Part shown: in pieces, positions 1,498 to 36,464 of the stretch
How positions within the stretch are numbered: the first letter of the stretch is position 1
How the letters are laid out: each line of letters opens with the position of its first letter
NCBI GenBank assembly: GCA_963977705.1
Contig: CAXBSH010000001.1
Span: 1-58,302, forward strand
Source: an uncultured Planctomycetaceae bacterium
GTDB lineage: Bacteria; Planctomycetota; Planctomycetia; Planctomycetales; Planctomycetaceae
Length of the DNA: 58,302 nucleotides
Direction of reading: 5' to 3'
Notes under the pieces: model-generated
Database searches by the model: none
What the model saw: the letters and a program-made list of their open reading frames with translations, nothing else
What the model was told of the DNA's origin: nothing
Program-made: the position numbers and the translations under genes

Positions 1498-1519
1498 TCT
1501 GGATGATCAGCCCAGGTGC

Positions 1520-3907: not shown

Positions 3908-4168
3908 GGTTTGACTGCAAAGTCAGCTTTGGGGGTGTTGCTGTTTTTTGAAATACGGCGTCAGCAGTACCTGCTGAGCTTCTGATGGCCTCCGGCGTTC
4001 TGCCGGGGTATCAGGATCTCTGGGTGTGTGTGTGACGCACATGCGGCGGCTGGCGACGTTCGTCGGCCGTGCTGAGTGAATCACTGACGCTATGTGCAAG
4101 CGTAGCGTTGACATGGCAGGGGCACTGGTTTACTTCGGGATGTCTCTGCGCAGATCTGAAAGACTATC

Positions 4169-5743: not shown

Positions 5744-5774
5744 CCTTCGAAATACTTCTGTTGTGATGATTGTT

Positions 5775-5808
5775 GACCGTCAGGCGAATGTCTGGCGGTC
5801 ATTTTTTT
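5775..5808 (+). terminator. rho-independent terminator downstream of rng
   Basis: Stem GACCGTCAG (5775-5783) pairs with CTGGCGGTC (5792-5800): 9 bp including one G-U pair, with an 8-nt loop. It is followed by A then T7 (5802-5808). The T-run overlaps the TAA stop (5807-5809) of the convergent 1823-aa gene. Confidence 0.7.
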
Positions 5809-13549: not shown

Positions 13550-13563
13550 CGTCTCCAGGTGAT

Positions 13564-20294: not shown

Positions 20295-21008
20295 ATGTCA
20301 GAAACTGGACAAATCCTGCATCGGAATCTGATGGCGGTGCAGTCGCGGATGCGAGCAGCCTGTGAACGTTCGGGTCGGGATCCGAGGACTGTGCGGCTGG
20401 TTGCCGTGACGAAGTACGCTGAGCTGTCGTGGGTTCGGACGCTTGCGGGGATGTATACCGTTTTCGGAGAGAATCGACCGCAGCAACTGGCGGAACGGTC
20501 CGAGTTACTGCCGGCGGAATGGCATCTGATTGGGCATCTGCAGCGAAACAAGGTGAATCTGGCCGTACGGCATGCATCGCTGATTCATTCCGTCGACTCG
20601 CTCAGACTGCTGGAGGCGGTGTCGGACTGTGCGACAGAAAACCATCGTCCTGCGGTGCTGCTGCAGGTCAATGTATCGCGTGAGGCTTCAAAGACAGGCT
20701 TTGCTGTAGAAGAGTTGCCGGGGATCTGGGAGTCCATAGTGGCGTATGCGGGGCGAGTTGAGATACGAGGGCTGATGACGATGGCGGCTGAGTCGGCAGA
20801 TCCGGAGGAGGCGCGCCCGGTTTTTGCAGAGCTGCGTCGTTTGCGGGACCGCCTGAGCGAGGCAGCGGCGACGCACGCGAGTGGAATTTGTCTGAATGAG
20901 CTATCGATGGGTATGAGCGGGGACTTTGAACCTGCGATCGAGGAGGGGGCCACGCTGATACGGCTTGGGAGTCTGTTATTTGAAGGTCTGTCGAGTACGA
21001 CGGTCTGA
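20295..21008 (+). CDS. yggS: YggS-family pyridoxal-phosphate homeostasis protein
   Basis: 237 aa from ATG 20295. Motifs 'VRLVAVTKY' (PLP lysine), '[10 protein letters not shown]' and '[27 protein letters not shown]'. The track ORF starts 67 codons upstream. Confidence 0.9.
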
Positions 21009-21226
21009 GCGTGGCTGGCAGCGGACTATGAAGCGGCAGTTCCTGCCGGTAGTGAACAGACTGACGTGATGTTTCCGTTTGGCGCGAAAGTTCGAGTGAT
21101 TCGTTTTCGGAAGAATGTCGCGAGAATGCCGAAGACACCAGCGGGGGAACTTTTTGCGCCGGCAGAGGTCCGTGCGCCGGGTGGCAGGCTGCCATCCGTG
21201 GGGTGGGCAGCAGCAGCGGAGGCGCC

Positions 21227-22276
21227 ATGGGGACGGGATTGATGCGCTGGGAGCGATTTATCGCAGGTCTTCTGGCCTCCGGTCTTTGTGTGGGAGGTGT
21301 GGCAGCGGATGAAGAGTGGCTGCCAACGACACTGGTTCCCGAGGAGACATTGATCAGTGAATCTGAAAGTGTTCCGGCAGCCGATCAGATGTCGGACATG
21401 GAATTCAATCGTCCGATCACCGAACCGGCGGAGCTTTTCGGTGATGCTCCTGATGCGGGGTGTGCGGATGTCTGTGGTGAGCTGCCGATTTCACGCGGTC
21501 GTCAAGGCTGCTGGCAGGGGGCAACATTCATCAGCAGCTACATACATGATGATTCCAGTACGGGTCTGGCTATCGGGGGACTGGATGTCTCTTCAACGTT
21601 TGCTGTGCCACTGGGAAGTTACGAGAACATTCTGCTGCTGACACCGTTGTTTCGTGCGGATTTTCTGAATGCAGCGGCGATTTTTGACTTGCCATCAGAA
21701 GTCTATGAGACGGGAGTGCGCGGGCTCTGGAGGACGTCGCTGACCGATCGTCTGAGTACGATGGCAATTGTTACTCCCGGTGTCAGGACAGATTTTCAGA
21801 ACAGCGACAGTGCGTTTCGCCTGTTTGGGATGGGATTGCTGACGTGGCAGACGATTCCGGACAAGTTGTCACTGTCGGGAGGTGTTGTATACACGGGGCG
21901 AGACGATTTTCCTGTGCTGCCGGCTGTGGGTCTGCTCTGGACTCCGACCACGGAATTGAAGTTTGATATCCAGTTTCCGTCACCCAGAATTTCGTATCGT
22001 CTGGCGAAGGATGGCCAGAGCAGTGAGTTGTGGGGGTATCTGTCGGGTGTGTTTGGTGGCAATACGTGGTCAGTCCAGAGAGCGTCGGGTGTGAATGATC
22101 AACTGACGATTCGGGATCTGCGATTGATGCTTGGGCTTGAGAACCTGCTGCCAGAGAATCGATCGGCATTTATGGAATGCGGACTGGTCTTCGATCGTTC
22201 GTTTGCATGGCAGGACAGCACAGAGGATACGCCACTGGACAGTACGTGGATGCTGCGTGCCGGGATCAGTTTCTGA
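21227..22276 (+). CDS. putative outer-membrane beta-barrel protein (family not identified); paralogue of 47904-49064
   Basis: 349 aa from ATG 21227, with GGAGG at 21218-21222. Signal peptide 'MGTGLMRWERFIAGLLASGLCVGGVAA'. It shows an alternating beta-strand pattern and a C-terminal aromatic residue ('LRAGISF'). Shared motifs with the paralogue: 'RDDFPVLPAVG'/'RDDFTALPVFG', 'FPSPRISY'/'FPRPRIEY' and 'GGNTWSV'/'GGTWDI'. Confidence 0.7.
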   Translation: MGTGLMRWERFIAGLLASGLCVGGVAADEEWLPTTLVPEETLISESESVPAADQMSDMEFNRPITEPAELFGDAPDAGCADVCGELPISRGRQGCWQGATFISSYIHDDSSTGLAIGGLDVSSTFAVPLGSYENILLLTPLFRADFLNAAAIFDLPSEVYETGVRGLWRTSLTDRLSTMAIVTPGVRTDFQNSDSAFRLFGMGLLTWQTIPDKLSLSGGVVYTGRDDFPVLPAVGLLWTPTTELKFDIQFPSPRISYRLAKDGQSSELWGYLSGVFGGNTWSVQRASGVNDQLTIRDLRLMLGLENLLPENRSAFMECGLVFDRSFAWQDSTEDTPLDSTWMLRAGISF

Positions 22277-25200
22277 CGTTTCCGGGAACTGCGGAAGACC
22301 GTTCAGGTAAGGCAGCGGAGGCTTCTGAGTGTGTGCCTTCCATTTGTCCTGCGGTGACTCTGAGTACTGAGTTATCCACAGTGATGACCGTTGTAAGGGT
22401 GTAATCGGCGCGGACTGTGGCGCTGGCGGACATCACAGCCAGCACCATGACGAACATGGCAACACCGATTGGGATGATGGTGGTCAGTTCGAGGTGTCTG
22501 CGAAAGGAAATCGTCACAGGGTCTGTGACTGTTCTGTGCAATCGAATGGTGCGTTGTCCGGCATCTGTGGTTTTGCGATTCAGAAAAAGGGAAACAGACT
22601 CAGCAAGGGACCCGGAAAGTAGTTCTGTTGTGGCCACATTCTGATCTGGTCGGAATGCCGAGTTTCGTGAGAGCAGGCTGATGCCTGTACGCAGATCCTG
22701 CTCCAGCAGCAGTTGTTGCTGTTCACTGGTCAGGGTTTCGACTGTGGGCGCCGTTGAGGGCATCTCACGAAGTGGCGAAACGATCCAGAGATGCTGTCGC
22801 TGCTGACTGTTTCGTACAAAGGGCACTGTGAACTGAATTCTGGATTGTCCTGGGTGTTCCGGGGCCAGTCGTCCCAGCCAACGGAGCCTGATCTGCGTCA
22901 GATTTGTGGTGGAGTTGACGATCAGGCGTCGGCGAGTTGCATCTTCCCAGTTGACTTCGACACCGTTTGGAAGTTCGGTAATCGCCACGTTGTCCGGGAT
23001 TTCCAGAATACAGGTGAAGGGTGCCGTCCGACTGAAAACGAGGTACTCTGTTTCTGCTGCCGGAGACTGTCCGGGAATTGCAGATATGACGGTTGCAGAG
23101 ACTGCGACGAGGCTGTTTCCAGGCCCTGAGTCCGGGTCTGCTGGTGCTGCTGCGATTGGCAGTTGAATACGACTGCCTGCAATGAGTGCTGCGGCATCAA
23201 ATCGACCTGCCGATTCGGCACTGCGTGCCGCTGGTGCTGCGAGCAGAGTTCTGTCAATTTCTGTGGCCCATGAGGGCAAGCGACTCTCTGCTGACCGACT
23301 TTCTGTTGACCCATTGAATACGAACATATCGGTCCACAGAATTCGATCGGAGATCAAAGGCCAGTTGAGGCTGTATGGCTGTGCGTTGGAAGCACTCTTT
23401 CTGTCTGGCAGTGGCAGGCTCCAGGTAACCGTGAATTCGGACTTCCCAAACAGCGTTCGGATAGCGGCACTGTCTGGAAAGAATCGGCCTGCCGTCCGCT
23501 GGAGTGTCAGCTTTCCCGGATCCAGAACGACGGCCGGCTCACTGACGAATTCCGTGTTATCAGGGAATGTCATTTCCAGTGGACCGAGCGCTGCAGGCCA
23601 CTGTGACAGTCGTACGGCAAACTGCATTCGATCAGGGAGCCACCACGCTGCCACGGCACCGAGTGGATCCACGGGGGTTTGTCTGGTGAGACATATCGGG
23701 CGAGTTTCACCGACAACCGTAAGCCTGAGTGAAACTCCTTTCTGCAGAGCGTCACCCGGTTTGAGTGGTGGATCTGAAACGGAGTCTCCGGTATCGGAAA
23801 AGGCGAGTCCGCTGCCGGACTGATCAGTCAGGATCAACGATGATTCGAGGATTTGAGAGTTTTCAAGTGTGGGGGCAGCCAACTGGATCTCTGAATCGTC
23901 CGGGAGCAGAGTCCGTGAGCCCTCGAGAGTGATTGCATGCAGCCCGGTGGTACCTTCGCGGAGCAGTAGAATGACCACGTTGCCCTGGCGATGCCAGGAG
24001 GCCAGTCGATTGGCCTCACCGGCAGAAACTTCCACCTTACGGACTACGACCTGTTCAGGAACTGTGATTCGATGGCGAAAAACTGCAAGTGTGGAGGTTT
24101 CAACGTCCATCCGACAACTCCAGTTCATGTTCTGTTCTGCGAACGTGCATTCCTGCAGGATTCTGACTTCGTTAGTAGCCGCGCGATCGGGAGCCGTGAC
24201 GAGCAGGCTTTCCGTGCTTTTACCTGTTTCGAAGATCAGGTCGGAGCGTCTGAGCCATGGGCCCCAGCGTGCTGAGACGTCAGCGAAGCTGAGCGGAGTT
24301 GCGGCACTGCGGTCGGGTGAGTAGGGGGCAAAAATAGAACTGGCTCGCAGTGCAAGAATGCCTGTATCTGCGGGTTTACAATCGTCGAAATGGTTCAACT
24401 GGTGAATCGGGATCACCTGCTGTTGCAGTGGTATCGCTCGTGTTGATCGCAGTTGCAGGTGCAGGATGAAATCTGCTGGCACAGCGCGAGGGAGGGTGAT
24501 GACTGCTGACTGATTTTCCACAGACCACAGCAGGTCGGGGCTCTGGAGGCCAGCGGCGGCTGAAGCTGAGAGCAGGCGGAATCCTTCCGGGATGTGGTAT
24601 CGGATTTCGGGACTGAGCGGATTCCAGCCAACGAAACGGCAATAGCAGCTGAGGTTCTGAAGTCCGGTCGTGTTTTCTGCGACCGTCATCACTTCAACAG
24701 TGGCGAGCTTCGGGCCACGACGTTCGAGATCCGTCTGCAGCAGCCTGACATCGATACCGTCACCATCTGCCAGACCATTGAACTGGACAGGACCGTCTGC
24801 GGGATTCCAATGCAGAATTCCGTCAGCGGTCTGCAGGCGGGCTGTGGAAAACAGGCCCTTTGGTGTTTCGATTCTGATTTCGGAGTCCGGTCCTGGTGGT
24901 GTCGGGAGGCGAAACTGTAACCCGGACGGCTGTCGCACAGTCGTTGGCCGCAGTCGGCAGATGACAACATGATCCGAGAATGCGGCAACTTCATCAGCTG
25001 GCTCGGCACGACCACTGGGAGCGGTGACAGCAATCGGGATTTGCGGTACTGCGCGAGAGGCCGGAATGGGGATTGAGATCTGTTCGGGAAGCTCAGGGTC
25101 CGGAAACACCTGCTGACCATCGACTGTGCAGTCAACGAGGCGAGCGCCACGAATCGGCAGGCTGAGTGCAGCGGCCTCGTCGCCACTGGGTACAGAGACG

Positions 25201-28200
25201 TTCAGTTGCAGTTCCAACTGAACAGATTCCGTGGTTTCTGCGGTGACCAGTGCGCGAACCGAGCGGATGACTGCCGAGGGCTCCGGTGAACGCTCGCTCT
25301 GCAGTTGCCGCAACTGTTGCAGATAGCTGCGCCGGATCCACGTCATCGGCGAGTTCTGAGGTAGTGTTCGAAGTACTGCGTCGTCAGGAAGGGTGGCAGC
25401 TTCAGGGGCGGGAGCTTGCCCGGGGTTCGGGGTTTCCTGAGCAGATGTGGACTGAGACAGGACGGCGAACAGCAGAACAAGGCTGTTCAGCACGGGCGTT
25501 CTGCTGAAGCTGCGTAAGTAGCGGACCAGTCCTCGCGCCGACATGATCAGCAGCAGTCCCGCAGCATTTCCCCAGAACGCTCCCTGCAGTGCAGCCTGCA
25601 CGACGGGTGGCAGATCGAATACTCCAGCCAGCGAGAGCAGTATAACGGGCAGGGCAGCGGCCGGAGGATTGCGCAGCAGCATCGCGGAGCAGGACAAGCA
25701 CAGGCCGAAAAAGACCACACCCATTCCGGCTGCGACAATCTGTCGGCGTTGTTTCTGAGTCACCTCAAGCTTCAGCAGGGAACCATTTCCAGCGGGTTGA
25801 ACAAGCCATGCGTAGCTCCAGTCGCGACTGCGGGTCAGTTTCCACAGCAGTTGAAACTGCAGTGTGGTGGCATGTGGCCCGGAAGTGAGCGATGTTGGCG
25901 CGTTTGCAGGGCTCGCAGCATCGTCACTGTCACTGAAGACAAGTTCAACGGGTTCCGGGGCTGTCGCAGCTTTGACGACACGGAACTCAGAGGTGGGCAA
26001 TTCGGGCTCCAGCTCGGGTGCAATCAGCAGATGGTGGACAAACTGGAGGCCACTGCCGTCGACGGATCGAACTCTGGAAAGCACCACACGACTGCGGATG
26101 TTTTCAATTGGACAAAGTTCAGGTTCCCATGCCAGCACGATGCGACAGCGATCCCTTGAATCAGGAATTGGTATTTGCAGTCCGGTCGGGGTAATTGTTG
26201 CAGCGACTCGACGGCCATCTACCAGTACATGTGGCTGTGTCTGGTCAGCATCAATCTGCAGACTTCCTCCGCTGCGACCTGAAACGTCCACGACTGCCAG
26301 CATCTGGTGTTCGACAAGTCCTGCCCGCTCTCGTATCACGTGATAGTTGGCGACGTCGGCCGACTGCGCCGTTGCATCGATTTGCTGGCGCAGTCGTTGG
26401 ACGACAATCGGCTGTGGCAACGCGGGCAGCGTCCAGCCGGCGTATTGCTCATTACTGATGTAGTCCGGATGTTCTTCAAGTCCCACCACCTGCAGAATTT
26501 TCAGATCAGAGCGCGGGACTGTCATTACTGCGCCTGCCACTTCTGCTTCGGGCAGGAATGGAATGGCCGCGATGAATTCGCCTGCGATGGTTCGGCGAAT
26601 GGAACCACTGATTCGCAGGGTGGATTCAGCTGCAGCAGCCGGCAGTGCAAAGACAGCATCACGCCAGAGATTTTCATTGCCGGCAACTGCTCGCCATGCG
26701 GGCAGGACTGCCTCGCCATTGATTTTCCAGCTGAGCTCGTCGGCGAACTCGGACGCGAGGCGAATGACCATGGAGGTTCGGTTGGCAGTGGCCGCGAATT
26801 CCACCTGCAGGTCTTCCACAATGACACCTTCCCCATCAGTCCGCATCTGATGCTTGACATCGCATTTTGCGGGCTGAACTTCCGCAGGAGGTTGCGTGAG
26901 CGTATCACCGGCGAAGAAGCACAGCGTGTTTTCGGGCAGTCCGTTGGCGGGGAACCACGGTGCATCTGAAAGGAAATCAGGGATGGAGGCAGTCTGCTGC
27001 CCTGTCGTCCAGCGGGCGGGCAGGCGGGATTGTGTCTGGGATCGCGGCGAATACAGCAGCCACGAGGAGGTGCGTTCAATACCTGCGGAAACTGACAGTG
27101 GTGGCTGCAGCCGTGCAGGGTCGGCATGCTCCAGTTGCTGCAGCCGCAGTTCGATGACTCGCGATGTGTCTGGTTCCAGTGTTTCCGGCAGATGCACCGT
27201 CAGCATGGAGCTGGCATTCAGTGCCGCTGCATCCGTGCCATCGGCGGTGGGCTGCTCAAAGTAGAGGACACGAGCGTCGGAGGCGTAGCGGGCCGCGACT
27301 GTCTGCCAGCCAGGTGAGATTGGCCATTTCAGTTCGATGACAGCGGCTTCGGTGCATCGAACATTGATGAAGCACCGAACTGCGGCCAGTTGGCCAGCGG
27401 GTTCCATCACAGTGGCAACAGCGTCTGACAGTACAGCGGCTCGTGTGGAAGTTCGGATCGTCGCTGTTGCTGTACTACTGAACTGCGTCAGTTGGTAGGT
27501 ACGCGACTGGTCCGGTCCCGGTACGACATCACGCTCCTGCATTCCGTAAAGGGTCCAGTTATCAACGTTTACTGTTGCTGGAAGCGAAACACTGACGATG
27601 CCGGTTGGGCTGAGCAGATCTCCGCGGATTTCTGAGCTGCTTAACCAACGCTGCATTGAGAGTGCCGGCAGGTCCCACCGGTCTGCATCCGGGATGACGG
27701 ATGCGGCAGAAATCGTGAGTGACCCGGTGCTGCCTGATTCGGGAAGCTGAATTGCAAGGATCTGCTGGTTCTGGGCGAGGCGGGCATCCCACTGCAGGGA
27801 CCGATTTTCATCGGTTTTTACAGCTGTGACTCTGGTGTTCGGACTCAGTTGAGCGGTCAGCAACGTCACGCCTCGAATGTTCTGAGGCAGGCCGATTGTC
27901 CAGCGGGATGACATGATGTCGCCGTTGAGGACGTGGCTGGCTGAGAATGCTGTCAGTGCCAGCGGTTCTGAAGTCTGCAAACTGGTGGTACGACGACAGG
28001 AGAAGGCGATGCGAGCGGGTTCAGCAGCATGCAGTTCCCAGACCAGTCCGGAGTCTGCTGGCTGTGGTCCGAGTACAAGGCAACCCAGTCCTGTGACTTC
28101 AGTTTCAGCGGGGGTTCGTAACTGGAGTTGTGTCGCCGTACTGGCTGGCAACTCAAGACGGAAGATCGTGGTATCTCCGGAAACGAGTCCATCAGCTGTC

Positions 28201-28700
28201 CACGAACCGGTGATATTCCCCGTCAGTCCTGGTTTGAGTACGCATAACCTTCGACTGAGATCGGCTCCGATGGGCAGCGGACCTCGAGGATCGCGCAGCT
28301 GAAGTTTCTGCAGGCTGGTACGTCCGAGCAGTAATCCCTGGGCCGATGCAGTATCGGTGTTGTAGAGGTCATATTCCAGCGTGCCACCATTGAGTGTCCG
28401 CCCCTGAAGTTCTGCCTTGTAGCTTGAAGTTCGAATCGCCGGTGACTCTGGTTGCCGGGAGTGTCGAGCGAGTTTCTGCAGGCGCTCAACCTCAGCCTGA
28501 GGGAGAGGTAAGTAATCTCCTGTTGTGATCAGATCCTGAATTTTTTCGGGGGTATCACCGGGTGAGGTGGGTGGCGCTGCGGGAATCGTTTCGGATGTCG
28601 TGGTTGGTTCAGCCTGACTGCCTGCAGACTGTGGCCCCTGCGTGGTGCCGTCCTGCAGCATCAGCAGCGCGCACAACAGAATGTAGGCCGTTCCAGTCAT
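22266..28700 (-). CDS. giant membrane-anchored protein of unknown function (2144 aa; two tandem ~1,050-1,090-aa modules fused in frame)
   Basis: ATG 28700 lies 1 nt after the upstream gene's TGA (28704-28702); the track ORF start at 28892 lies inside that gene. N-terminal signal 'MTGTAYILLCALLMLQDG'. Three hydrophobic segments lie at 25545-25742. An internal signal-peptide-like 'MSARGLVRYLRSFSRTPVLNSLVLLFAVLSQSTSA|QETP' follows (25544-25440). The final TM is 'TTIIPIGVAMFVMVLAVMSA'. I recognise no catalytic or named-domain motif. Confidence 0.85.
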   Translation of the reverse strand: MTGTAYILLCALLMLQDGTTQGPQSAGSQAEPTTTSETIPAAPPTSPGDTPEKIQDLITTGDYLPLPQAEVERLQKLARHSRQPESPAIRTSSYKAELQGRTLNGGTLEYDLYNTDTASAQGLLLGRTSLQKLQLRDPRGPLPIGADLSRRLCVLKPGLTGNITGSWTADGLVSGDTTIFRLELPASTATQLQLRTPAETEVTGLGCLVLGPQPADSGLVWELHAAEPARIAFSCRRTTSLQTSEPLALTAFSASHVLNGDIMSSRWTIGLPQNIRGVTLLTAQLSPNTRVTAVKTDENRSLQWDARLAQNQQILAIQLPESGSTGSLTISAASVIPDADRWDLPALSMQRWLSSSEIRGDLLSPTGIVSVSLPATVNVDNWTLYGMQERDVVPGPDQSRTYQLTQFSSTATATIRTSTRAAVLSDAVATVMEPAGQLAAVRCFINVRCTEAAVIELKWPISPGWQTVAARYASDARVLYFEQPTADGTDAAALNASSMLTVHLPETLEPDTSRVIELRLQQLEHADPARLQPPLSVSAGIERTSSWLLYSPRSQTQSRLPARWTTGQQTASIPDFLSDAPWFPANGLPENTLCFFAGDTLTQPPAEVQPAKCDVKHQMRTDGEGVIVEDLQVEFAATANRTSMVIRLASEFADELSWKINGEAVLPAWRAVAGNENLWRDAVFALPAAAAESTLRISGSIRRTIAGEFIAAIPFLPEAEVAGAVMTVPRSDLKILQVVGLEEHPDYISNEQYAGWTLPALPQPIVVQRLRQQIDATAQSADVANYHVIRERAGLVEHQMLAVVDVSGRSGGSLQIDADQTQPHVLVDGRRVAATITPTGLQIPIPDSRDRCRIVLAWEPELCPIENIRSRVVLSRVRSVDGSGLQFVHHLLIAPELEPELPTSEFRVVKAATAPEPVELVFSDSDDAASPANAPTSLTSGPHATTLQFQLLWKLTRSRDWSYAWLVQPAGNGSLLKLEVTQKQRRQIVAAGMGVVFFGLCLSCSAMLLRNPPAAALPVILLSLAGVFDLPPVVQAALQGAFWGNAAGLLLIMSARGLVRYLRSFSRTPVLNSLVLLFAVLSQSTSAQETPNPGQAPAPEAATLPDDAVLRTLPQNSPMTWIRRSYLQQLRQLQSERSPEPSAVIRSVRALVTAETTESVQLELQLNVSVPSGDEAAALSLPIRGARLVDCTVDGQQVFPDPELPEQISIPIPASRAVPQIPIAVTAPSGRAEPADEVAAFSDHVVICRLRPTTVRQPSGLQFRLPTPPGPDSEIRIETPKGLFSTARLQTADGILHWNPADGPVQFNGLADGDGIDVRLLQTDLERRGPKLATVEVMTVAENTTGLQNLSCYCRFVGWNPLSPEIRYHIPEGFRLLSASAAAGLQSPDLLWSVENQSAVITLPRAVPADFILHLQLRSTRAIPLQQQVIPIHQLNHFDDCKPADTGILALRASSIFAPYSPDRSAATPLSFADVSARWGPWLRRSDLIFETGKSTESLLVTAPDRAATNEVRILQECTFAEQNMNWSCRMDVETSTLAVFRHRITVPEQVVVRKVEVSAGEANRLASWHRQGNVVILLLREGTTGLHAITLEGSRTLLPDDSEIQLAAPTLENSQILESSLILTDQSGSGLAFSDTGDSVSDPPLKPGDALQKGVSLRLTVVGETRPICLTRQTPVDPLGAVAAWWLPDRMQFAVRLSQWPAALGPLEMTFPDNTEFVSEPAVVLDPGKLTLQRTAGRFFPDSAAIRTLFGKSEFTVTWSLPLPDRKSASNAQPYSLNWPLISDRILWTDMFVFNGSTESRSAESRLPSWATEIDRTLLAAPAARSAESAGRFDAAALIAGSRIQLPIAAAPADPDSGPGNSLVAVSATVISAIPGQSPAAETEYLVFSRTAPFTCILEIPDNVAITELPNGVEVNWEDATRRRLIVNSTTNLTQIRLRWLGRLAPEHPGQSRIQFTVPFVRNSQQRQHLWIVSPLREMPSTAPTVETLTSEQQQLLLEQDLRTGISLLSRNSAFRPDQNVATTELLSGSLAESVSLFLNRKTTDAGQRTIRLHRTVTDPVTISFRRHLELTTIIPIGVAMFVMVLAVMSASATVRADYTLTTVITVDNSVLRVTAGQMEGTHSEASAALPERSSAVPGNVRN

Positions 28701-28701
28701 G

Positions 28702-31700
28702 TCAGCGAGACGATCCTGAGGAGGCGTCCGGTTGGAGTGCAGCGCTGTTGAAGCTGCTTCCCTGGTTTTCCCGAACGGCAGCGGTGGCAAGATCCGGTAT
28801 GCCGAAAATCGACGGCAGTTCCGTTGCGTTAGCGAGTCTATGTGCCACGTTTCCACGAGATCCGAGAGCTCGCTGCAACTGGGCGATGACAAGCCCAGTG
28901 ATCAGGCCGACTACTGCAGGTGGCAGGAATACGGACGACCAGAGTGGCTGGGCAACCCAAACAGCCAGTGCGAGAGCGGGTGTGATCACGAGTGGCACAA
29001 GGAAGGACATACGGCGGAACAAAGACATGGAGAGAAAGATCAGCACACATCCAGGGGCCGCTGCCAGAATCTGCAGGGCGAGGGGGATCTCAATTACTGT
29101 CAACTGGCGAGCCGCAGCGCTGCCGAGGCACAGTGCAGTGGTCCTTCCGGGGGGCAGAATCTGTGCAATCTGAGGAGCAACGGCGCTGCGAATGGCGGGA
29201 GAAAACGTTGAAATGACGGTCGTAAGATCTGCCGCCTGCTGTTCGCTCGCTGTGCGGCTCCATGGCAGTAAAGATAATAAACCGGGGTCAAATGTTTCGA
29301 ATCCCCGGCTGAGCGGAATACTGCGGGAGCCGGGGGCAGCAGACAGGCTCCAGACCACCGGCAATGCGGCTTCTTCAGTGGAAAAGTCTGGTCGCAGCAA
29401 TGCCAGTCGACGGTAGAAACCGGGGCCGGAGGGAATGATCTGCCGGCACTTGACGACAAGTACAGCAGGTCCGGAAACTGCCTGCAACGCAGCCGGCAGG
29501 ATCTGCCAGCGAACTGAGCTTCCGTCAGTGGACGGAATGGCCTGCAGTGAAGTTCGTGCTGCATTGGCTTCGGTCAACAGCTGATTTCCGAGCTGTACAG
29601 ACTCCAGTTGCAAAGAGTCAGCAAGCTGGAAAAACAGCGTTGATGGCACATCCTCCCATGCTGCAAGACTGGTGGTCAGTAATTGTCCGGGAAGCAGTTC
29701 GGACGAAACCAGAATCAACAGCGGGCTTTCGCTGTCGGCAAACGTTGAAGCCTTTGTGCGGCGAATCGGGAGTGCAAGATTCTGTGCGACGAGCGATGGA
29801 ATTGCAGCGGAGGGAGATCCGGTCTGGCCACTGCGCCATTGCCATGCTGCATCCGACACATCGGAGAAGATCGGTTCCCAGCGGGCGGGATCAGCAACCA
29901 GCAACCCACTCCACGAAGCCGTCTGAGCACGGATACTGCGGATCAGACAGTCTGCCGGAATGACCAGAGGCAGTTGCTGCAGTCCGTTGGAGTCCGGGGC
30001 TGCAGACTGCAGATCCGTCCAGATCCAGCCGACCTCCAGCAGCAGTTCTCCTCGTGCTGCCTGTGGCAGGCGAAAGGTCCATTTTCCGGACGGACCGATC
30101 CCGGGACGCAGCGGTTCGCGATTGCCGGCAATCCTGACGATTGGTTGAACTCGCTCCGGCACGAACAGCGTGACTTCAGTCAGGTCTTTATGATCAATCA
30201 GGAAGCGAATCTGTTGCCGTATCTCCAAACCGGATTCCACAGGGGTCAGCCCCGCTGCGACTTCAGCTTCGACAACGGGATCCTGTCGCCGCAGCGAGAC
30301 CAGCAGGGGCTGATCAGGATTGCGATACAGCAGGCTGCGAGGTTGCTGTGCGGTTCCTGCCTGAGTTTCAGAGGGGTCCTCTGAAATTCCGGTCAGATCG
30401 TCAGCGGACGCGGGGGCTGTAACTTCGATACGACTCTGGTCAGATTCCAGCAGACGAAGCACCACTGGTTGCCCTGAGCGAGCACGGATCTGTGGGCAGA
30501 GCAGACTCAGAACAGTGTCAGCAGCAGCTTCCTGTTTCGCAAGGCAACGCATTTCGACCGTGAATTCGCCGGTCTGACGCTCGGGAAATGCCAGCGTCAT
30601 CTGGTCGGGCTGGCCTTCGACCTCTCGAACAATCACCGCCGATTGTTCATTGCTGCTGCGTAAGACAAGGTCGCCGGGAAGTGTTCCCCAGATTTCACGC
30701 ATCGTCTGCGGCCACTGCAGGGGCAATTCCAGCAGCGATCCTCGCAGGACGTTGACACGCCAGCGCATCAGCAGACTGATGGAGTTGTTTTCCGGTCGTA
30801 ACTCCAGCTCTTCCTCGAACACGTACTGTGCTTCGGTTTCCTTGACTTCCAGCTGAATGCGCGATTCAGGCGAGCGGAGGCGGAATGCCGTCGCGGCAAC
30901 GCTGGTGTCTGCATCCGAGGCAACACGACGACGCTGTGCTCCCGTGACCTTCGACTGCTCCACAACAAGTCCGGACGGGATCAGAATATCGAGGTCGCCA
31001 GTCTGGACATTGGCTTCCTGAATGGCCGGTAAGGAGATCTGAATTGACTGTGGGAAAACGGGGTTCTTCAACTCCAGCTCAAACCCGAGTGTCAATTGCC
31101 CCTCCACTGCTGAAGTCAGGCGAATCAGAGTCCGCGTTGGAACTTCGTTTGAAAGGACTTCATAGTTTTTAAGAACAGAAACGTTCGCTGAGTTGCGAGC
31201 ACTCACTTCCTGAAGTTCGAATCCCGGAGGATAGGTCACGCTGACCTCTGATAAAGACCCGCCACTGATCTGCAGTGATTGCGTCCCATTCAGGCTGACT
31301 GGAATGGTGGTCAGGTCCAGCTTGATGCGAGTCTGAGATTGCACAACCGGTTTCACTGCAACCTGTGGAGCAATTTCTGACCACGAGAGCGATACCAGCC
31401 CCGATAAGCCCCAGAACTCGATACCACGGATGCCTTCTGCATCACGCTGTGTCTCTGCGACAGCATCGGGTGGCAAACGCTGCAGATCCACAGGGACAGC
31501 AAAATCCAGACGAGCGTGTGAAGCAGTTGATAGCGGTAATGTCAGATTCAGTTGCCAGCCACCTCCCGGTACAGGACGAGCGCGACTGATCATCTGCAGA
31601 TTCAGAGTGTGCAGGCCACGCCCTTTCAGGTGCCAGGTTCTTGAATTCTGATCGCCCACAGACAACACAGCCTCGGCACCCGGGGCCTGCGACTCATGAC

Positions 31701-32121
31701 GAAACTCCGTCAGAAAGAGTTCACCAAATGACAGTGGGACCGCTATCCACTCACCTTCTGTGCGAACGCGGACCTGCAACCGGAAATTCAGACGGACGAC
31801 ATCCCGCTCGACTGTCCCCGAGATTTCGGTTTGAGCAACAGTGAATGCCGGAACGGAACGTTGTTCAAGCCCGCGCTGCAGAAGTTGATCCGCGATTTCA
31901 GAACCCAGCAGGTTGCGAAGCGGAATCTGTTCGCCGGATTTCATCTGAATCACGATCTCAGAGATTTCCGGAAGATCGCCCGGGGGAGTCTGCGCAGCAG
32001 GGACGTCTGGCGGGGACTGAATGGGTTCAGTCTGCGCGGTACATGGTGTTGCAATCAGCCACAGACTGATCACAGCCAGCAACCGTGCGGCGCTGCCGAT
32101 ATTCGGAAGTCGCCGAGCCAT
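28702..32121 (-). CDS. giant membrane-anchored protein of unknown function (1139 aa; first module of the three-module set)
   Basis: ATG 32121 gives the signal peptide 'MARRLPNIGSAARLLAVISLWLIATPCTA|QTEP'; the track ORF starts 20 codons upstream. It has a Pro-rich linker, ~950 aa without a recognisable motif, and three C-terminal hydrophobic segments ('GCVLIFLSMSLF', 'FLVPLVITPALALAVWVA', 'VFLPPAVVGLITGLVIAQL'). Confidence 0.85.
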   Translation of the reverse strand: MARRLPNIGSAARLLAVISLWLIATPCTAQTEPIQSPPDVPAAQTPPGDLPEISEIVIQMKSGEQIPLRNLLGSEIADQLLQRGLEQRSVPAFTVAQTEISGTVERDVVRLNFRLQVRVRTEGEWIAVPLSFGELFLTEFRHESQAPGAEAVLSVGDQNSRTWHLKGRGLHTLNLQMISRARPVPGGGWQLNLTLPLSTASHARLDFAVPVDLQRLPPDAVAETQRDAEGIRGIEFWGLSGLVSLSWSEIAPQVAVKPVVQSQTRIKLDLTTIPVSLNGTQSLQISGGSLSEVSVTYPPGFELQEVSARNSANVSVLKNYEVLSNEVPTRTLIRLTSAVEGQLTLGFELELKNPVFPQSIQISLPAIQEANVQTGDLDILIPSGLVVEQSKVTGAQRRRVASDADTSVAATAFRLRSPESRIQLEVKETEAQYVFEEELELRPENNSISLLMRWRVNVLRGSLLELPLQWPQTMREIWGTLPGDLVLRSSNEQSAVIVREVEGQPDQMTLAFPERQTGEFTVEMRCLAKQEAAADTVLSLLCPQIRARSGQPVVLRLLESDQSRIEVTAPASADDLTGISEDPSETQAGTAQQPRSLLYRNPDQPLLVSLRRQDPVVEAEVAAGLTPVESGLEIRQQIRFLIDHKDLTEVTLFVPERVQPIVRIAGNREPLRPGIGPSGKWTFRLPQAARGELLLEVGWIWTDLQSAAPDSNGLQQLPLVIPADCLIRSIRAQTASWSGLLVADPARWEPIFSDVSDAAWQWRSGQTGSPSAAIPSLVAQNLALPIRRTKASTFADSESPLLILVSSELLPGQLLTTSLAAWEDVPSTLFFQLADSLQLESVQLGNQLLTEANAARTSLQAIPSTDGSSVRWQILPAALQAVSGPAVLVVKCRQIIPSGPGFYRRLALLRPDFSTEEAALPVVWSLSAAPGSRSIPLSRGFETFDPGLLSLLPWSRTASEQQAADLTTVISTFSPAIRSAVAPQIAQILPPGRTTALCLGSAAARQLTVIEIPLALQILAAAPGCVLIFLSMSLFRRMSFLVPLVITPALALAVWVAQPLWSSVFLPPAVVGLITGLVIAQLQRALGSRGNVAHRLANATELPSIFGIPDLATAAVRENQGSSFNSAALQPDASSGSSR

Positions 32122-32313
32122 AAAAACGGACCCCCAATGCAGCCTCAAAGGCCACAGACACCGGAACTGAGATCCGATCAAGCCATCCCAGCTGGATCGG
32201 GAACTGACAGAGCACGTCGCGAAGTACGTATTCTGCCAGTCTGCTGCCAGTATAGTTTACGCAAATCACCCGGGCGGGAGAAGTTGCCAAACTTTACGGT
32301 CCGGGTTGACTGG

Positions 32314-33087
32314 CTATTTGAACAGTACTGTCAGGTTCTTTTGCAGTTCAAGCGAGCTGGCTGCGAGCAGGCTGGGTTTGAAGAGGTCAGGGGGATTTCC
32401 GTCGAGGTCACTGACAGTTCCGCCAGATTCAGTAACCAAAAGTACACCTGCTGCGATATCCCAGACATTGAGGCTGCTGGACCAGAAAGCATCAATCCTG
32501 CCGGCGGCGAGGTAGGCGAGATTCAGTGCGGCCGAGCCGGTTCGCTGCACGGTCTGGAGTGTTTGCAGTGCTTTCAGGAATCGGCTGATAGCCGGGTTTT
32601 CCGGATTTGCTGCGATTGGCAGGCTGGCGATGCCAAAGGCTTTTTCTGTACGAGTTTCTCCACTGGTGCGGAGTGGTATTCCGTTGAGAGTGGCGCCGTA
32701 GCCGCGACTGGCGGCGAAAACGTCGTTGCGGGTGGGGTCAAGGATGACTCCAACTTCAACCACGCCTTTGTGCATCAGTGCGATGGATACTGCGAAGTAG
32801 GGGAAACCGTGGACGTAGTTGGACGTTCCGTCGAGTGGGTCGATGATCCAGACCGTGTCCTCAATAGTGCCGCGATCATTGAGATTTTCTTCGCCGAGGA
32901 ACGAGTAATCGGGGAACTGACTTCGCAGTCTGTTGACGATGGTCGTCTGGGACGCCTCGTCAGCCTCGGTGACGAGGTTTGCTCGACTTTTTTCGCGCAC
33001 GGAGAATTTGCCCTGCCAGTTGAGGAGCACATTTCCGGCGAGTGAGGCGGCATCGATGGCCGCTGTCAGCCATTCCTCGTGTGACAT
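32314..33087 (-). CDS. inositol monophosphatase family protein (SuhB/IMPase-like)
   Basis: 257 aa. Motifs 'FLGEE', 'WIIDPLDGTSNYVHGFPYFAVSIAL' and 'WDIAAGVLLVTESGG'. Confidence 0.9.
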   Translation of the reverse strand: MSHEEWLTAAIDAASLAGNVLLNWQGKFSVREKSRANLVTEADEASQTTIVNRLRSQFPDYSFLGEENLNDRGTIEDTVWIIDPLDGTSNYVHGFPYFAVSIALMHKGVVEVGVILDPTRNDVFAASRGYGATLNGIPLRTSGETRTEKAFGIASLPIAANPENPAISRFLKALQTLQTVQRTGSAALNLAYLAAGRIDAFWSSSLNVWDIAAGVLLVTESGGTVSDLDGNPPDLFKPSLLAASSLELQKNLTVLFK

Positions 33088-33417
33088 GGACGATTGGTCC
33101 TTTCAGGTCCTGGTTGGTGTGCGGGGACTGTTCGGGGTGCTGAGCGACATTTCGGTGCAGTGTATCCAAAAGGGAACGTCGTCATAATCGGAATGATCGA
33201 TCCAGACCGCCATTCCTGCGACGATTGAGGAGGTTCCCGCGTGCGGATTGCCGGATTAGGGTTGCCGACATGGTGAATCCCTCCAATTCTGCTGTGTAGT
33301 GTGAGTGAAAACCTGCAGAAAAGTTGTCTGGCGGTGGGCCATTCGGCCGAAATTGCCGATACAGCAGGAAACCGTCGATATCTCTGCTGGCATCATGGAT
33401 AGGGATTTGGAAGTTTC

Positions 33418-33906
33418 ATGAAGTCGGGTCGTGTATCGCTCGGCCGTCGCGGTGCCGTTCTATCGATGGAACTGGTGCTGGTACTGCCGATTTTTCTGTT
33501 GCTGATCTTTGGCATTGCCCAGTATTCAATGCTGATGGCGGCCCACGCGCGGATCACGTCCGCTGCTCAGACGGGCGTACGCCTGATGAGTCTGAGTGGG
33601 GCAAGTGAGGCGGAGGTTCAGCAGAGTGTTTCCCAGTTGCTGGGAGTGTCATTGGCGTCTGAATGTGAGATCGAGGTGGAACCGGCGGAGTATGCTGGGC
33701 AGGTTGGCCGTGTTCATGTGCGTGTTCCGATGGCCAGTGCCAGTCCGGATCTGCTGTGGATGACGGGTTTCAGTCTGGCTGGCCGGTATCTCGAGGCAAG
33801 TTCTGCGATGGTCATGGAGCGTGTGGCACCTCTGGAGTCCGTTGCTGCTGAAGACAGCGATCTGACTGCAGAGAATTCCGTTGCTCCGGCGTCGCAAGCG
33901 TTTTGA
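33418..33906 (+). CDS. TadE-like (Flp-pilus pseudopilin-like) protein
   Basis: 162 aa. The N-terminus 'RRGAVLSMELVLVLPIFLLLIFGIAQYSMLMAA' matches the TadE-like domain pattern (conserved E followed by a hydrophobic helix). Confidence 0.7.
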   Translation: MKSGRVSLGRRGAVLSMELVLVLPIFLLLIFGIAQYSMLMAAHARITSAAQTGVRLMSLSGASEAEVQQSVSQLLGVSLASECEIEVEPAEYAGQVGRVHVRVPMASASPDLLWMTGFSLAGRYLEASSAMVMERVAPLESVAAEDSDLTAENSVAPASQAF

Positions 33907-33924
33907 TGAACTGAGGAGACATCC

Positions 33925-34935
33925 GTGAAGATCACCCCGTGGATGCTGACGATCGCGACCTTTGCCGTTGTTTGCACACTGGCTTCGGGATATTTTTTGA
34001 AGGTGGTGTTTGCGCGTCCGGAAATGCGTGAGTCTGTGCGGACCACGCGTACGATTCCGATGCTGCAGTCCGACGTTGAACCGGGCACCACCATCACTCG
34101 CGCACACCTCGGGCTGGGGCCGTGGGATCGTTCCAAGTCCCTCGAGCCTGATACAATTCTGAATTCCGATACGATTGTCAATCGCATCGCAAAAGAGAAG
34201 ATCTCGGCGGCAACGCCTTTGCGTGGATCAATGTTCTATGCTCCGGGTGACTTTCCGGAGTTGGAAGTGGAAGATGGAAAGCGGGCTGTCGTAGTGCGTG
34301 TCAGCCCAACGACTGCAGCGTTGAACGCCAAACTGAAGCCTGGTCAGTATGTTGACGTGCAGTTGACAGTTGACGAGGCCGACGTTTCAGCGGCAGCTCG
34401 GCGGCGTGCAGGGCTTGATCCGCGCAACGATACACTGTCGGGCGATGCGATGACTGCGACACTGTTTCGTGGAGTGAAGGTGATTCAGGTGAATCGTGCG
34501 TCCGGTGGATCTCGTTCGGCCGGACAGAGTGTGACTCTGGAACTGGATGAGGAACAGTCAAGAATCGCTCTGCTGGCGCAGAAAAAGGGCGAGGTTGATC
34601 TGATCTACAGCAACAGCGGACCAGGGCAGGGTGGGATCAGTATTGAAGCCAGCGAGGATGATCGAATCTTCTTCATGGAGATCCTCGGCCTCAAATCGAT
34701 GGCTCGCGAAGAGAACAAGCCATTTCGAACTGAGCAGTATCGTGGCTCCAGTTTCAACAGCGGATATTTTCAGGATGGTGCAAGACTTGGCAATCCCTCT
34801 GGCCAACGTCCGGCACCGACTGCTCCCAACAGTACACCGATTCGCGGACCATCGACAACACAACTTGATGACAGTGACCTGACGCTGGACGACCTTGCGG
34901 GAACGCTGCCCGACGACAGTGCAGTGCCTCGATAG
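33925..34935 (+). CDS. cpaB: Flp pilus assembly protein CpaB-like, with disordered C-terminal tail
   Basis: 336 aa, GTG start. N-terminal TM 'WMLTIATFAVVCTLASGYFL'; SAF-like 'IPMLQSDVEPGTTITRAHL'; RcpC-like 'KRAVVVRVSPTTAALNAKLKPGQYVDVQLT'. The last ~60 aa are P/S/T/D-rich. Confidence 0.7.
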   Translation: MKITPWMLTIATFAVVCTLASGYFLKVVFARPEMRESVRTTRTIPMLQSDVEPGTTITRAHLGLGPWDRSKSLEPDTILNSDTIVNRIAKEKISAATPLRGSMFYAPGDFPELEVEDGKRAVVVRVSPTTAALNAKLKPGQYVDVQLTVDEADVSAAARRRAGLDPRNDTLSGDAMTATLFRGVKVIQVNRASGGSRSAGQSVTLELDEEQSRIALLAQKKGEVDLIYSNSGPGQGGISIEASEDDRIFFMEILGLKSMAREENKPFRTEQYRGSSFNSGYFQDGARLGNPSGQRPAPTAPNSTPIRGPSTTQLDDSDLTLDDLAGTLPDDSAVPR

Positions 34936-34967
34936 GTTCCAGTGAGTATCGCCGGGGGGGACAAGCC

Positions 34968-36152
34968 ATGCTCAGGATGCAGGCTGTTTATGGACTGTGC
35001 AGTCTGAAGGCTTCGGCAGCTGAAGTCCCTGTCCGGGTGCGACGTGGCGTACTTTCGTTGTGGACTGTCATGGCGCTGGGTTTCATCGGACTCGCGTCAT
35101 TTCTGGTGCTGGACGTTTGGCTGATTTCCGGGCTGCTGCAGCATGCCCGCAACTGCTGTGAGTCGTCTGCAGCGGCTGCTGCGTACAAGTGGGTGTCCGA
35201 TGATCTGCTGCGACAGTCATGGCAGCAGTTTGAGGTGGATGGTCGACAGGCGGAGTGCACCGCAGCGGCAGTAGAGCAGGCAGACTGGTACTCTGAACGC
35301 ACACCTCTGCCGGCTTTGAACGCCGACGATGTGGAATATATCTGGTCGCAGTCAGAAGATGCGACGGATGAGGCGGGCTTTCCGATACCAACAGCAATCC
35401 GTGTGCGACATTCCACTGCGGATGCTCGCGTCTACCGACGTGCAGGCAGTCTGTTGAACCTGGCGCCGGTGACGACGGCAGCGTCGGCTCGTCTGGAGAA
35501 TAGACCGGTTGCATTTCGTCCGGCACCCGGTCAGACTCTGCCCATGCTGCCTTTTTCGATCTGTGATGATCCGAATCTGAGTGGTGCTGGCTGGTGGACA
35601 TCACAGGTGGAGCAGGGTGGTGGAGCGGATCAAGTTGCCTGGAATCCGGAAATGAGGATCTTCGAGCAGGGGCCGGATGGAATTCCGGAGATCGTGGTGG
35701 AACTCACAACGGAACCTTCCGGAAAGCCACAGGAACTTGTGTTACTGGATTTTAACGCAGGTGACTCGACCAGTGTTCGTCCGTTGAACCGACAGATTCA
35801 GGAGGGACTGCGTTCGTCCGATCTTGAATCGCTGGGGATGAGGGAATTGACTTTTCCCTGTGATTTTCCCTCGCTCACTCCGACTCTTGAGCAGTTGGGA
35901 GAGGTTGAGGAGGAATTGGCAGATGGTCGTGCGGAGCCTGCTCTGCTGATGCTCTGCAGTCGTTTGTCGTCATCGGGGTTTTCACTGCAGCGACCGGTAG
36001 CGGTACGCGTGGTCGACGCAGTACGTCCGGACAGCGAGACATTGCAACTGACGTTTCAGCCCTGTGTTCTTGTGACCGGGATGGCAGTGACTGCAACGGA
36101 CGATGCAACTCCCTCGAATCGCTACGTCTACAGCATCCGACTGGCTGACTGA
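34968..36152 (+). CDS. TadG-like (Tad_N-type) putative pilus-assembly protein
   Basis: 394 aa. The N-terminal 'RRGVLSLWTVMALGFIGLASFLVLDVWLISGLLQHARNCCESSAAAAAY' follows the TadG N-terminal pattern (TM helix, then D..., then an Ala-rich helix). I see no vWA motif. Confidence 0.55.
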   Translation: MLRMQAVYGLCSLKASAAEVPVRVRRGVLSLWTVMALGFIGLASFLVLDVWLISGLLQHARNCCESSAAAAAYKWVSDDLLRQSWQQFEVDGRQAECTAAAVEQADWYSERTPLPALNADDVEYIWSQSEDATDEAGFPIPTAIRVRHSTADARVYRRAGSLLNLAPVTTAASARLENRPVAFRPAPGQTLPMLPFSICDDPNLSGAGWWTSQVEQGGGADQVAWNPEMRIFEQGPDGIPEIVVELTTEPSGKPQELVLLDFNAGDSTSVRPLNRQIQEGLRSSDLESLGMRELTFPCDFPSLTPTLEQLGEVEEELADGRAEPALLMLCSRLSSSGFSLQRPVAVRVVDAVRPDSETLQLTFQPCVLVTGMAVTATDDATPSNRYVYSIRLAD

Positions 36153-36399
36153 ACTGCATGCCGCAGGAAGGTAGGTTCTGCTGTATAGGCGCCGAGGACA
36201 AAAGGTGGCCCGAGTATTCCTGCTCGGCCCCCTCCCTTGAAAAACACGGGGGATTGCAAGGGTGACGAGAACTTCTTGCCCGGGCTGAAGCCCAGACTAC
36301 GACTTTGGTCCCTCGCGTCTGTATAGTCCGACGCTGCTGAGCGTGGGCCGAGGCCAGCAGTGCCAATCCGGACTGGAATTTTTCCCGCCCCGCTTGCAG

Positions 36400-36419
36400 T
36401 TCCGTGGAATTCCGTGGAG
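36400..36419. repeat. tandem direct repeat TTCCGTGGA(A/G) x2 with 10-bp phasing, 46 nt upstream of ATG 36465; possible operator
   Basis: The exact 9-mer TTCCGTGGA occurs at 36400-36408 and again at 36410-36418. The junction forms the palindrome GGAATTCC. Confidence 0.5.
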
Positions 36420-36464
36420 CATTCAGCAGAACGATTCCTTGCCACGTTCCGGGAGCAGACAGTG

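Follow-up and report, generated by a model that had tools for sequence, protein, structure and literature searches.

The 58,302-nucleotide (nt) stretch of DNA analysed here, called the window below (GenBank assembly GCA_963977705.1, contig CAXBSH010000001.1, from an uncultured Planctomycetaceae bacterium), carries two adjoining genes, A and BC, which represent an undescribed protein family and system in which only the fold of the building block is familiar. Together the two genes encode three giant modules, A, B and C, the last two fused into one chain. Judged by deep profile alignments, these modules are ancient paralogues of one protein family, and the gene pair keeps its order in relatives across deep branches of the Planctomycetota. 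We tentatively propose that the products form an inner-membrane-anchored A:B:C scaffold or strut in the periplasm, which would position other components of the cell envelope; we give this reading a little less than an even chance.

Two genes and three modules

Genes A and BC span 9856 of the 58,302 nt, or 16.9% of the window, and together encode about 3,280 residues (aa). All of their features lie on the reverse strand, and transmembrane (TM) helices and locations are as predicted.

28702..32121, reverse strand: gene A, ATG at 32121, stop at 28702, 1139 aa
32035..32121, reverse strand: signal peptide of A, aa 1-29, MARRLPNIGSAARLLAVISLWLIATPCTA before QTEP, with 'AQ' as the family consensus at the predicted cleavage site
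29287..31953, reverse strand: periplasmic all-beta array of A, aa 57-945, about five internal repeats of ~170-175 aa (AlphaFold2 secondary structure and self profile alignment)
28858..29082, reverse strand: membrane anchor of A, three TM helices (aa 1014-1034, 1041-1057 and 1059-1088)
28698..28704, reverse strand: junction TGAcATG, that is, the A stop codon, one base and the BC start codon
22266..28700, reverse strand: gene BC, ATG at 28700, stop at 22266, 2144 aa, modules B and C fused
25545..28700, reverse strand: module B, BC aa 1-1052, signal-like start, beta array and three TM helices; a full-length homologue of A including the TM region
25440..25544, reverse strand: B/C segment, BC aa 1053-1087, an Arg-rich cytoplasmic loop and then an internal signal-anchor-like segment, MSARGLVRYLRSFSRTPVLNSLVLLFAVLSQSTSA before QETP
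22269..25439, reverse strand: module C body, BC aa 1088-2144, linker, helix, beta array, two helices, beta hairpin, one TM helix and cytoplasmic tail
22419-22487, reverse strand: the TM helix within the module C body

Both start codons are supported by near-identical database proteins of equal length, P0001 (1139 aa, 97% identity to A) and P0055 (2144 aa, 99% identity to BC). The predicted layout of A opens with a signal peptide, a Pro-rich linker and one helix. About five beta-sandwich repeats follow, then two helices and a beta hairpin, and the chain ends in three TM helices with a cytoplasmic tail of ~50 aa. Module C, which begins at BC residue 1053 (nt 25544), has several nearly invariant cysteines.

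A first-pass annotation, made from the letters and the open reading frames (ORFs) of the window, had already described two genes joined as TGAcATG and filling 17% of the window, with signal-peptide-like N-terminal strings, Pro/Thr/Ala-rich linkers, beta-rich bodies and hydrophobic C-termini, three segments each in A and B and one in C. That description holds throughout. The ORF coordinates and the letters at the junction (...CGC TGA c ATG ACT...) confirm the join, the strings and linkers are all present in the translations, the hydrophobic C-termini are found in both the sequence and the AlphaFold2 models, and the models show an almost all-beta body. In relatives, the junction between A and BC is usually a 4-nt overlap of the ATGA type or a gap of 0-4 nt.

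Homology among the modules

The relationship among the modules is hidden from simple comparison. Pairwise BLASTP among A, B and C gave nothing below E 0.02, shallow profiles built from 55 and 35 close relatives reached a module-module probability of merely 7-19% in hhalign, and searches of a hidden Markov model (HMM) against sequence between modules gave co-linear hints only, with an independent E-value of about 0.06-0.1; the last kind of search also found no further A, B or C paralogue within the window. Deep profiles were therefore built from 168 A-type and 41 BC-type sequences, including distant lineages and with 50%-cluster representatives added, and were compared by hhalign. A and B then aligned with a probability of 99.3% (E 1.8e-20) over 922 columns, A61-1078 against B59-1050, in register and with the three TM helices included. 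The alignment of A and C (A53-938 against C52-934) reached 98.8% and E 7.2e-17, and that of B and C 92.7% and E 4e-7. Identity in these alignments is just 12-14%. As a control, one profile was reversed, which preserves composition and strand periodicity; the best E-value so obtained was 1.6e-3, restricted to the hydrophobic ends. The triplication suggested by the first-pass annotation is thus borne out against reversed controls despite the failure of BLASTP and shallow profiles, and the faint motif it had seen after the linkers recurs as motif columns that stand opposite each other in the profile-profile alignments.

The same profiles reveal repetition inside each module. The A profile aligns to itself, A103-762 against A269-956, with a probability of 97.8% and E 8e-13, and a second match appears at an offset of ~340 aa. 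Out-of-register matches were also seen between module profiles. Since A aligns to itself at offsets of ~170 and ~340 aa, and since such shifted matches occur between modules too, each module consists of about five tandem repeats of ~175 aa. The in-register hhalign score of 195 lies far above the shifted scores of 66 and 53, which indicates that whole modules were duplicated, rather than arrays built independently. This whole-module triplication preceded the divergence of the sampled lineages. With A, B and C homologous in register over their full length, and with A and the fused BC conserved as a pair, we describe them as a new family.

A family found throughout the Planctomycetota

Neither A nor BC has a match in Pfam or NCBIfam at E<=1, eight distant A relatives have none in Pfam, and a search of PDB sequences with narrow and wide A profiles returned noise only. 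No enzyme, ATPase, nucleotide-binding, transport or channel-like signature was detected in A or BC by Pfam and NCBIfam. The earlier verdict of no recognisable family and no ATPase, enzyme or adhesin-repeat signature therefore stands, BatD and DUF4139 being among the families covered. Every named relative of A or BC is a 'hypothetical protein' from a planctomycetal metagenome-assembled genome, and a literature search on ribophorin, Ost1, BatD and DUF4139 in bacteria, and on planctomycetal Tad and crateriform components, found no description of the family.

The relatives themselves are numerous. A word-indexed search gave 54 full-length relatives of A (1081-1264 aa) and 35 of BC (2001-2258 aa), and an exhaustive search with the A profile gave 936 representatives of 50%-identity clusters at E<=1e-3, 456 of them at E<=1e-10. 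Complete proteins among the top 150 matches of this profile are ~1050-1250 aa long; the shorter entries resemble fragments. Wherever the contig was long enough, an ORF of >1900 aa directly follows A (46 of 46 such loci among the first 61), and the same order holds in all five loci added later, L062-L066. All relatives examined have B and C in one chain. To judge from this distribution, the family is Planctomycetota-wide and very old, and the gene pair, which is found in hundreds of planctomycetal lineages, is kept well beyond that of the source.

Predicted structure

AlphaFold2 models were obtained for A (predicted local distance difference test score, pLDDT, 77.7; predicted TM-score, pTM, 0.38) and for C (pLDDT 76.4, pTM 0.41). 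The two models show the same order of elements: a signal helix, a disordered linker, one helix, an all-beta array, two helices, a beta hairpin and the TM region, which has three helices in A and one in C. Several 20-residue hairpins occur in the beta array.

Foldseek ranked the PDB matches identically for both models, with Ost1/ribophorin I first, followed by the legs of integrin alpha, PIG-T, and the N-domains of M1 aminopeptidases and leukotriene A4 hydrolase (LTA4H). The A model alone also matched the C-domains of streptococcal antigen I/II (AgI/II), and adhesin domains of ClfA were matched as well. The Ost1/ribophorin I match covers ~430 columns with E 6e-10 to 8e-8, a target-normalised TM-score of 0.2-0.3 and a root-mean-square deviation (rmsd) of ~22 Å; its lead over generic sandwich arrays is small. 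Low TM-scores are to be expected where domain orientations differ. On the strength of the models, we take the repeat to adopt a beta-sandwich of the Ost1/LTA4H-N type; its homology to Ost1 is unproven. The architecture had been called unrecognised in the first-pass annotation, and this is correct for the sequence family but not for the fold, which the models render as familiar tandem beta-sandwiches of that type.

Topology and the B/C junction

The signal peptides carry the 'AQ' consensus, and Arg/Lys-rich loops follow the C-terminal helices. In A, the beta array is followed by three helices parted by Arg-containing and short loops, and then by the tail of ~50 aa. From the signal peptide, the three helices, the Arg-containing loops and the tail, we infer that the array of A is periplasmic and its tail cytoplasmic, and that the signal peptide would be cleaved. 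A lipoprotein signal in A was considered and rejected, as the Cys is not conserved. The proteins had been pictured as a membrane-anchored scaffold either in the periplasm or at the surface; the inner-membrane anchor and the predicted periplasmic location agree with the first of these, whereas the second is unlikely, given C-terminal helices and Arg/Lys-rich cytoplasmic segments that indicate the inner membrane.

The way in which module C would reach the periplasm deserves some attention. After the third helix of B come an Arg/Lys-rich loop and a fourth hydrophobic segment, which closes with small residues followed by (A/G)Q; 41 BC relatives keep the same arrangement. The Met that opens 'C' in the window is not conserved among them, which led us to reject a separate start codon for C. 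The string that had been read as a signal-peptide-like start of C is indeed present, but it belongs to an internal signal-anchor-like segment of a true fusion. As C is not separately translated, it would be re-exported by this segment. The segment may also be cleaved by signal peptidase, splitting BC into two chains after insertion.

Proposed function

Putting these elements together, we envisage the following mechanism. Export of each module would rely on a Sec-type signal, which is the N-terminal signal peptide in the case of A and B and the internal signal-anchor-like segment in the case of C. On the periplasmic side, the module would then fold into about five consecutive beta-sandwich domains of the Ost1/LTA4H-N type. 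The C-terminal helices (three in A, three in B, one in C) would tether the modules to the cytoplasmic membrane, leaving short cytoplasmic tails. Translational coupling of A with BC and the permanent fusion of B with C would enforce equal amounts of three diverged paralogues, as is typical of obligate hetero-oligomers, and on this ground we suggest that they form one hetero-oligomeric A:B:C complex, presumably with 1:1:1 assembly. The complex would be a non-enzymatic scaffold or strut reaching from the inner membrane into the enlarged planctomycetal periplasm. Its task there would be to hold or position other parts of the envelope, among them perhaps, in some lineages, the DUF6268 outer-membrane protein or the tad pilus machine. 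A structural role is suggested by the lack of any catalytic, nucleotide-binding or channel-like feature and by the nearest structures, which are non-catalytic scaffolds.

Several points weigh against this proposal. The argument for a scaffold is drawn in part from an absence of catalytic motifs, and the beta array has conserved His, Asp, Glu and Arg residues that could make up an active or binding site of a kind not recognised here. Gene organisation is the sole basis for the complex and its 1:1:1 stoichiometry, just as the location was assigned solely by sequence rules. The low pTM values (0.38 and 0.41) leave the overall shape and length of the rod unfixed. Lastly, the model leaves unexplained a near-invariant neighbour of the inositol-monophosphatase (IMPase) family, to which we now turn.

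Gene neighbourhood and other readings

The genes that flank A and BC in the window are the following.

21203..22276, forward strand: DUF6268 gene (Pfam E 3.7e-7), C-terminal ...AGISF, converging on BC with an 11-nt 3' overlap
32314..33087, reverse strand: inositol-monophosphatase-family gene, 257 aa (Pfam Inositol_P, E 2.5e-65)
33418..36152, forward strand: TadE, CpaB/RcpC and a 394-aa ORF, divergent from the IMPase gene
33418-33906, forward strand: TadE (HMM scan)
33925-34935, forward strand: CpaB/RcpC (TIGR03177, above cut-off)

The most constant of these is the IMPase-family gene (~258 aa), which lies upstream of A on the same strand in 57 of 57 loci with an upstream flank among the first 61. 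It is also found in L062-L065, at A identities down to ~18%, and L066 is the sole exception. Its substrate is undefined because the window gene scores under every NCBIfam equivalog cut-off (SuhB-type inositol-1-monophosphatase, HisN and CysQ). The DUF6268 product is probably an outer-membrane protein, to judge from its Pfam match and a C-terminus like that of outer-membrane proteins. The gene stands beside the IMPase-A-BC unit in 25 loci, downstream and convergent or upstream and divergent (L028-L034 and L045 are examples), and such adjacency on changing sides may point to a functional link. The first-pass annotation had placed an IMPase-family gene and a TadE/CpaB pair beside the locus, and the Inositol_P and TIGR03177 matches agree. 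It had also listed a 'tadG-like' third gene and a barrel gene; the 394-aa ORF and the DUF6268 gene are there, but no HMM supports either label. The barrel gene and the tad trio, which it had named as the neighbours of the system, are adjacent in the window but lineage-specific, the IMPase gene being the near-constant one. As obligatory partners, DUF6268 and the tad genes were rejected on account of their patchy synteny.

The tad genes do raise a second reading, in which A-BC would serve the planctomycetal Tad (type IVc) pilus machine as a periplasmic accessory, an alignment device or basket that guides the pilus across the wide periplasm and possibly replaces missing tad components. The trio of TadE, CpaB and the 394-aa ORF occurs in 37 loci of the window's clade, with a prepilin peptidase in addition in L001, and it is the remnant of a fuller tad locus that occupies the same position in other lineages. 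L004 has a set (512-5162) with an A24 peptidase, a SAF-domain protein, T2SSE and two T2SSF, and L065 a full set (1625-8457) with an A24 peptidase, TadE, RcpC, a 397-aa protein, T2SSE and two T2SSF. Tad genes are thus found divergent beside IMPase-A-BC in three separate lineages, and the adjoining clusters include a CpaF-type ATPase gene and two genes of the TadB/C type outside the window. In L004, L065 and the window, a secretin (RcpA/CpaC) gene and a TadZ gene are both missing from the 10 kb around the tad cluster. The pili that emerge from planctomycetal crateriform structures, moreover, have no known machinery (PMC12673574). Against this, A-BC persists without adjacent tad genes in L002/L003, L058, L060, L061, L063, L064 and L066, it is the IMPase gene, not A, that faces the tad genes across a common intergenic region, and the described Tad machines, with their RcpC-RcpA conduit (PMC12307814), hold nothing resembling A or BC. 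The adjacency could equally be an inherited gene order with no functional tie. We regard a role in the Tad machine as unlikely.

A third reading starts from the structural matches. In it, A, B and C would be non-catalytic subunits of a membrane enzyme complex acting on lipid-linked or periplasmic substrates, as Ost1 is in oligosaccharyltransferase or PIG-T in the glycosylphosphatidylinositol (GPI) transamidase; they would keep substrates or partners beside a catalytic membrane protein whose gene lies elsewhere. Ost1/ribophorin I is the top Foldseek match of both models (6ezn_A, 436/438 columns, E 6e-10), PIG-T is matched too, and the design of beta-sandwiches plus TM helix is common to these proteins and the modules as modelled. 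The neighbourhood has something to offer here as well. In more distant lineages, bacA, the gene for undecaprenyl-diphosphate phosphatase, is convergent and immediately downstream of BC (L004, 16441-17244; L060, 19610-20404; L062, 11544-12353; L063, 20194-21024; L065, 20051-20854), and a phosphatase-family gene is nearly always upstream of A. These points are offset by the TM-scores and rmsd given above, by the integrin legs and streptococcal adhesins that were matched in the same searches, and by the absence of any sequence similarity to Ost1 or PIG-T. Further, no glycosyltransferase or transamidase gene occurs in any neighbourhood, and bacA is on the opposite strand and absent beside A-BC in the window's clade. 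The enzyme-subunit role is therefore, in our estimate, also improbable. Genes for HtrA/DegP-like proteases often come after bacA, and all of these are envelope-maintenance genes.

A fourth reading, very improbable, would make the modules adhesins of the cell surface or proteins of the cell wall that pass beyond the outer membrane: they are large, repetitive and beta-rich, with signal peptides, Pro/Thr-rich linkers and Foldseek matches to AgI/II and ClfA domains, but C-terminal helical TM segments and Arg/Lys-rich tails are conserved in all three modules, Pfam finds no adhesin repeat, sorting signal, or domain of an autotransporter or a type V or type IX secretion system, and a fixed phylum-wide gene order with constant protein length is unlike fast-evolving adhesins. 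What probability remains belongs to something outside the scaffold, Tad, enzyme-subunit and adhesin readings.

It may be permitted to go one step beyond the scaffold proposal. A-BC could be the conserved periplasmic core of an envelope machine specific to the Planctomycetota, such as the structure beneath the crateriform pits and the pili or fibres that belong to them, or else a strut by which the enlarged periplasm is kept at its width. The repeat domain, for its part, may be truly related to the scaffold domain of the eukaryotic proteins Ost1/ribophorin I and PIG-T. We offer this as a speculation with a rather small chance of being right.

A few other genes of the window and its relatives are worth recording. 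Redoxin/AhpC-TSA-domain proteins of 517-575 aa are encoded near A-BC in the window's clade, at 36360-37913 on the forward strand of the window, and in L002/L003, where the gene is directly downstream of BC (20622-22349 in L002). On the reverse strand at 12812-15401, two sulfotransferase-family genes stand in a row with a gene of the ELM1/Mito_fiss_Elm1 family (E 1.7e-47), adjoined by an ABC exporter and a rhomboid gene, and this may be a small cluster for envelope glycans or sulfation. At 5807-11278, also on the reverse strand, a giant ORF of 1823 aa combines a ceramidase-like N-terminus with DUF7133, HEAT repeats and cytochrome c motifs. Elsewhere, the window holds typical planctomycetal families, namely PSCyt1/PSCyt2/PSD1, DUF1501 and DUF7133.

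The element upstream of A

The gap between the IMPase gene and A contains a bipartite promoter-like element.

32253..32283, reverse strand: CTTCTCC-N14-GCGTAAACTA, directly following the stop codon of the IMPase gene, ~130 nt ahead of the start codon of A

The window contains this element at a single site, and 44 of 64 related loci likewise carry one copy each, always with the same spacing. Its parts are a -35-like TTCTCC, 17 nt, and a -10-like TAAACT. Its letters and position suggest a promoter or operator dedicated to A-BC. Transcription of A-BC thus probably starts from a separate promoter, and the IMPase gene may stand beside the operon as a conserved neighbour without being part of it. 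An Rfam search over 21000-34000 returned one sub-threshold chance match, with no riboswitch, leader or RNA family in the IMPase-A gap, and a generic scan for sigma-70 promoters and terminators gave counts at or under shuffle expectation.

Implications

In the Planctomycetota the periplasm is unusually wide and convoluted, and the cells bear crateriform pits with fibres and take up macromolecules; a 2025 review calls the molecular players unknown (PMC12673574). The A-BC locus, with its fixed gene order across deep branches of the phylum, is a concrete candidate for a part in this envelope biology. It is also an evolutionary case in its own right, in which a giant module was triplicated and one copy became permanently fused to another by way of a retained internal signal sequence. 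Should the resemblance to Ost1/ribophorin prove to be homology, the family would add a first prokaryotic member to a group of scaffolds so far regarded as confined to eukaryotes, and it would come from the Planctomycetes-Verrucomicrobia-Chlamydiae (PVC) group, where eukaryote-like traits are debated. Even if the function is merely structural, the family merits a Pfam or NCBIfam entry, which would give a name to hundreds of 'hypothetical proteins'.

Comparison with known systems

The BatD and DUF4139/MuiA-type envelope proteins follow the same general plan as the modules, with a signal peptide, a beta-rich periplasmic body and a C-terminal TM helix. Pfam searches at E<=1 gave no match to BatD, DUF4139 or DUF4140 for A, BC or the eight distant A relatives, and no MoxR, DUF58 or BatA-C (von Willebrand factor A) genes were found in any neighbourhood examined. 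Repeat adhesins such as Big, cadherin, AgI/II, LPXTG and autotransporter proteins are set apart by their repeats, no Pfam repeat family being found in A or BC, and by the C-termini, which in the modules are helical TM segments with cytoplasmic tails.

The Tad envelope components, the RcpC/CpaB conduit and the RcpA secretin, are encoded by neighbours of A-BC in several lineages and span the periplasm (PMC12307814), as A-BC is proposed to do. The likeness goes no further than this: A and BC have no Pfam or NCBIfam match to Tad proteins, and no Tad, type IV pilus or secretin chain is among the top 50 Foldseek matches.

The N-domain of M1 aminopeptidases and LTA4H (3b7s_A, 5ni6 and ERAP1, 6q4r_A) matches the models over 205-255 columns with a probability of 1.0 and the lowest rmsd listed (7-10 Å). 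The match is about the size of one ~175-aa repeat, so this domain probably represents the fold of the repeat unit. The E-values are modest (3e-4 to 2e-3), however, and in those enzymes the domain is an appendage of a zinc peptidase, whereas the modules have neither a peptidase domain nor a HEXXH motif.

Ost1/ribophorin I (PDB 6ezn_A, 6s7o_E, 6c26_1) is the best structural match for both A and C. As modelled, the modules would have in common with Ost1 tandem beta-sandwiches on the non-cytoplasmic side of the membrane and a C-terminal TM helix, and both lack a catalytic motif; they differ in that Ost1 has two sandwiches and one TM helix, as compared to about five predicted sandwiches and one to three TM helices per module. 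A survey in 2016 found no convincing prokaryotic homologue of Ost1 (PMC4973528). In our searches, Ribophorin_I (PF04597) gave no Pfam match at E<=1 for A, BC or the eight distant A relatives, the PDB profile searches, with Ost1 and RPN1 chains included, gave none to A, and no STT3/PglB-like gene was found within 10 kb at the listed loci.

Finally, the legs of integrin alpha (thigh, calf-1 and calf-2; 4g1e_A, 3fcs_A) form a rod of beta-sandwiches which continues into a TM helix and a short cytoplasmic tail, and which is one chain of a hetero-oligomer. The modules have no beta-propeller head and no sequence similarity to integrins, and the integrin context is eukaryotic, so that the resemblance is architectural only. 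As a picture of how a membrane-anchored strut could be built, the integrin alpha legs would still be the closest functional analogy for the A-BC modules.

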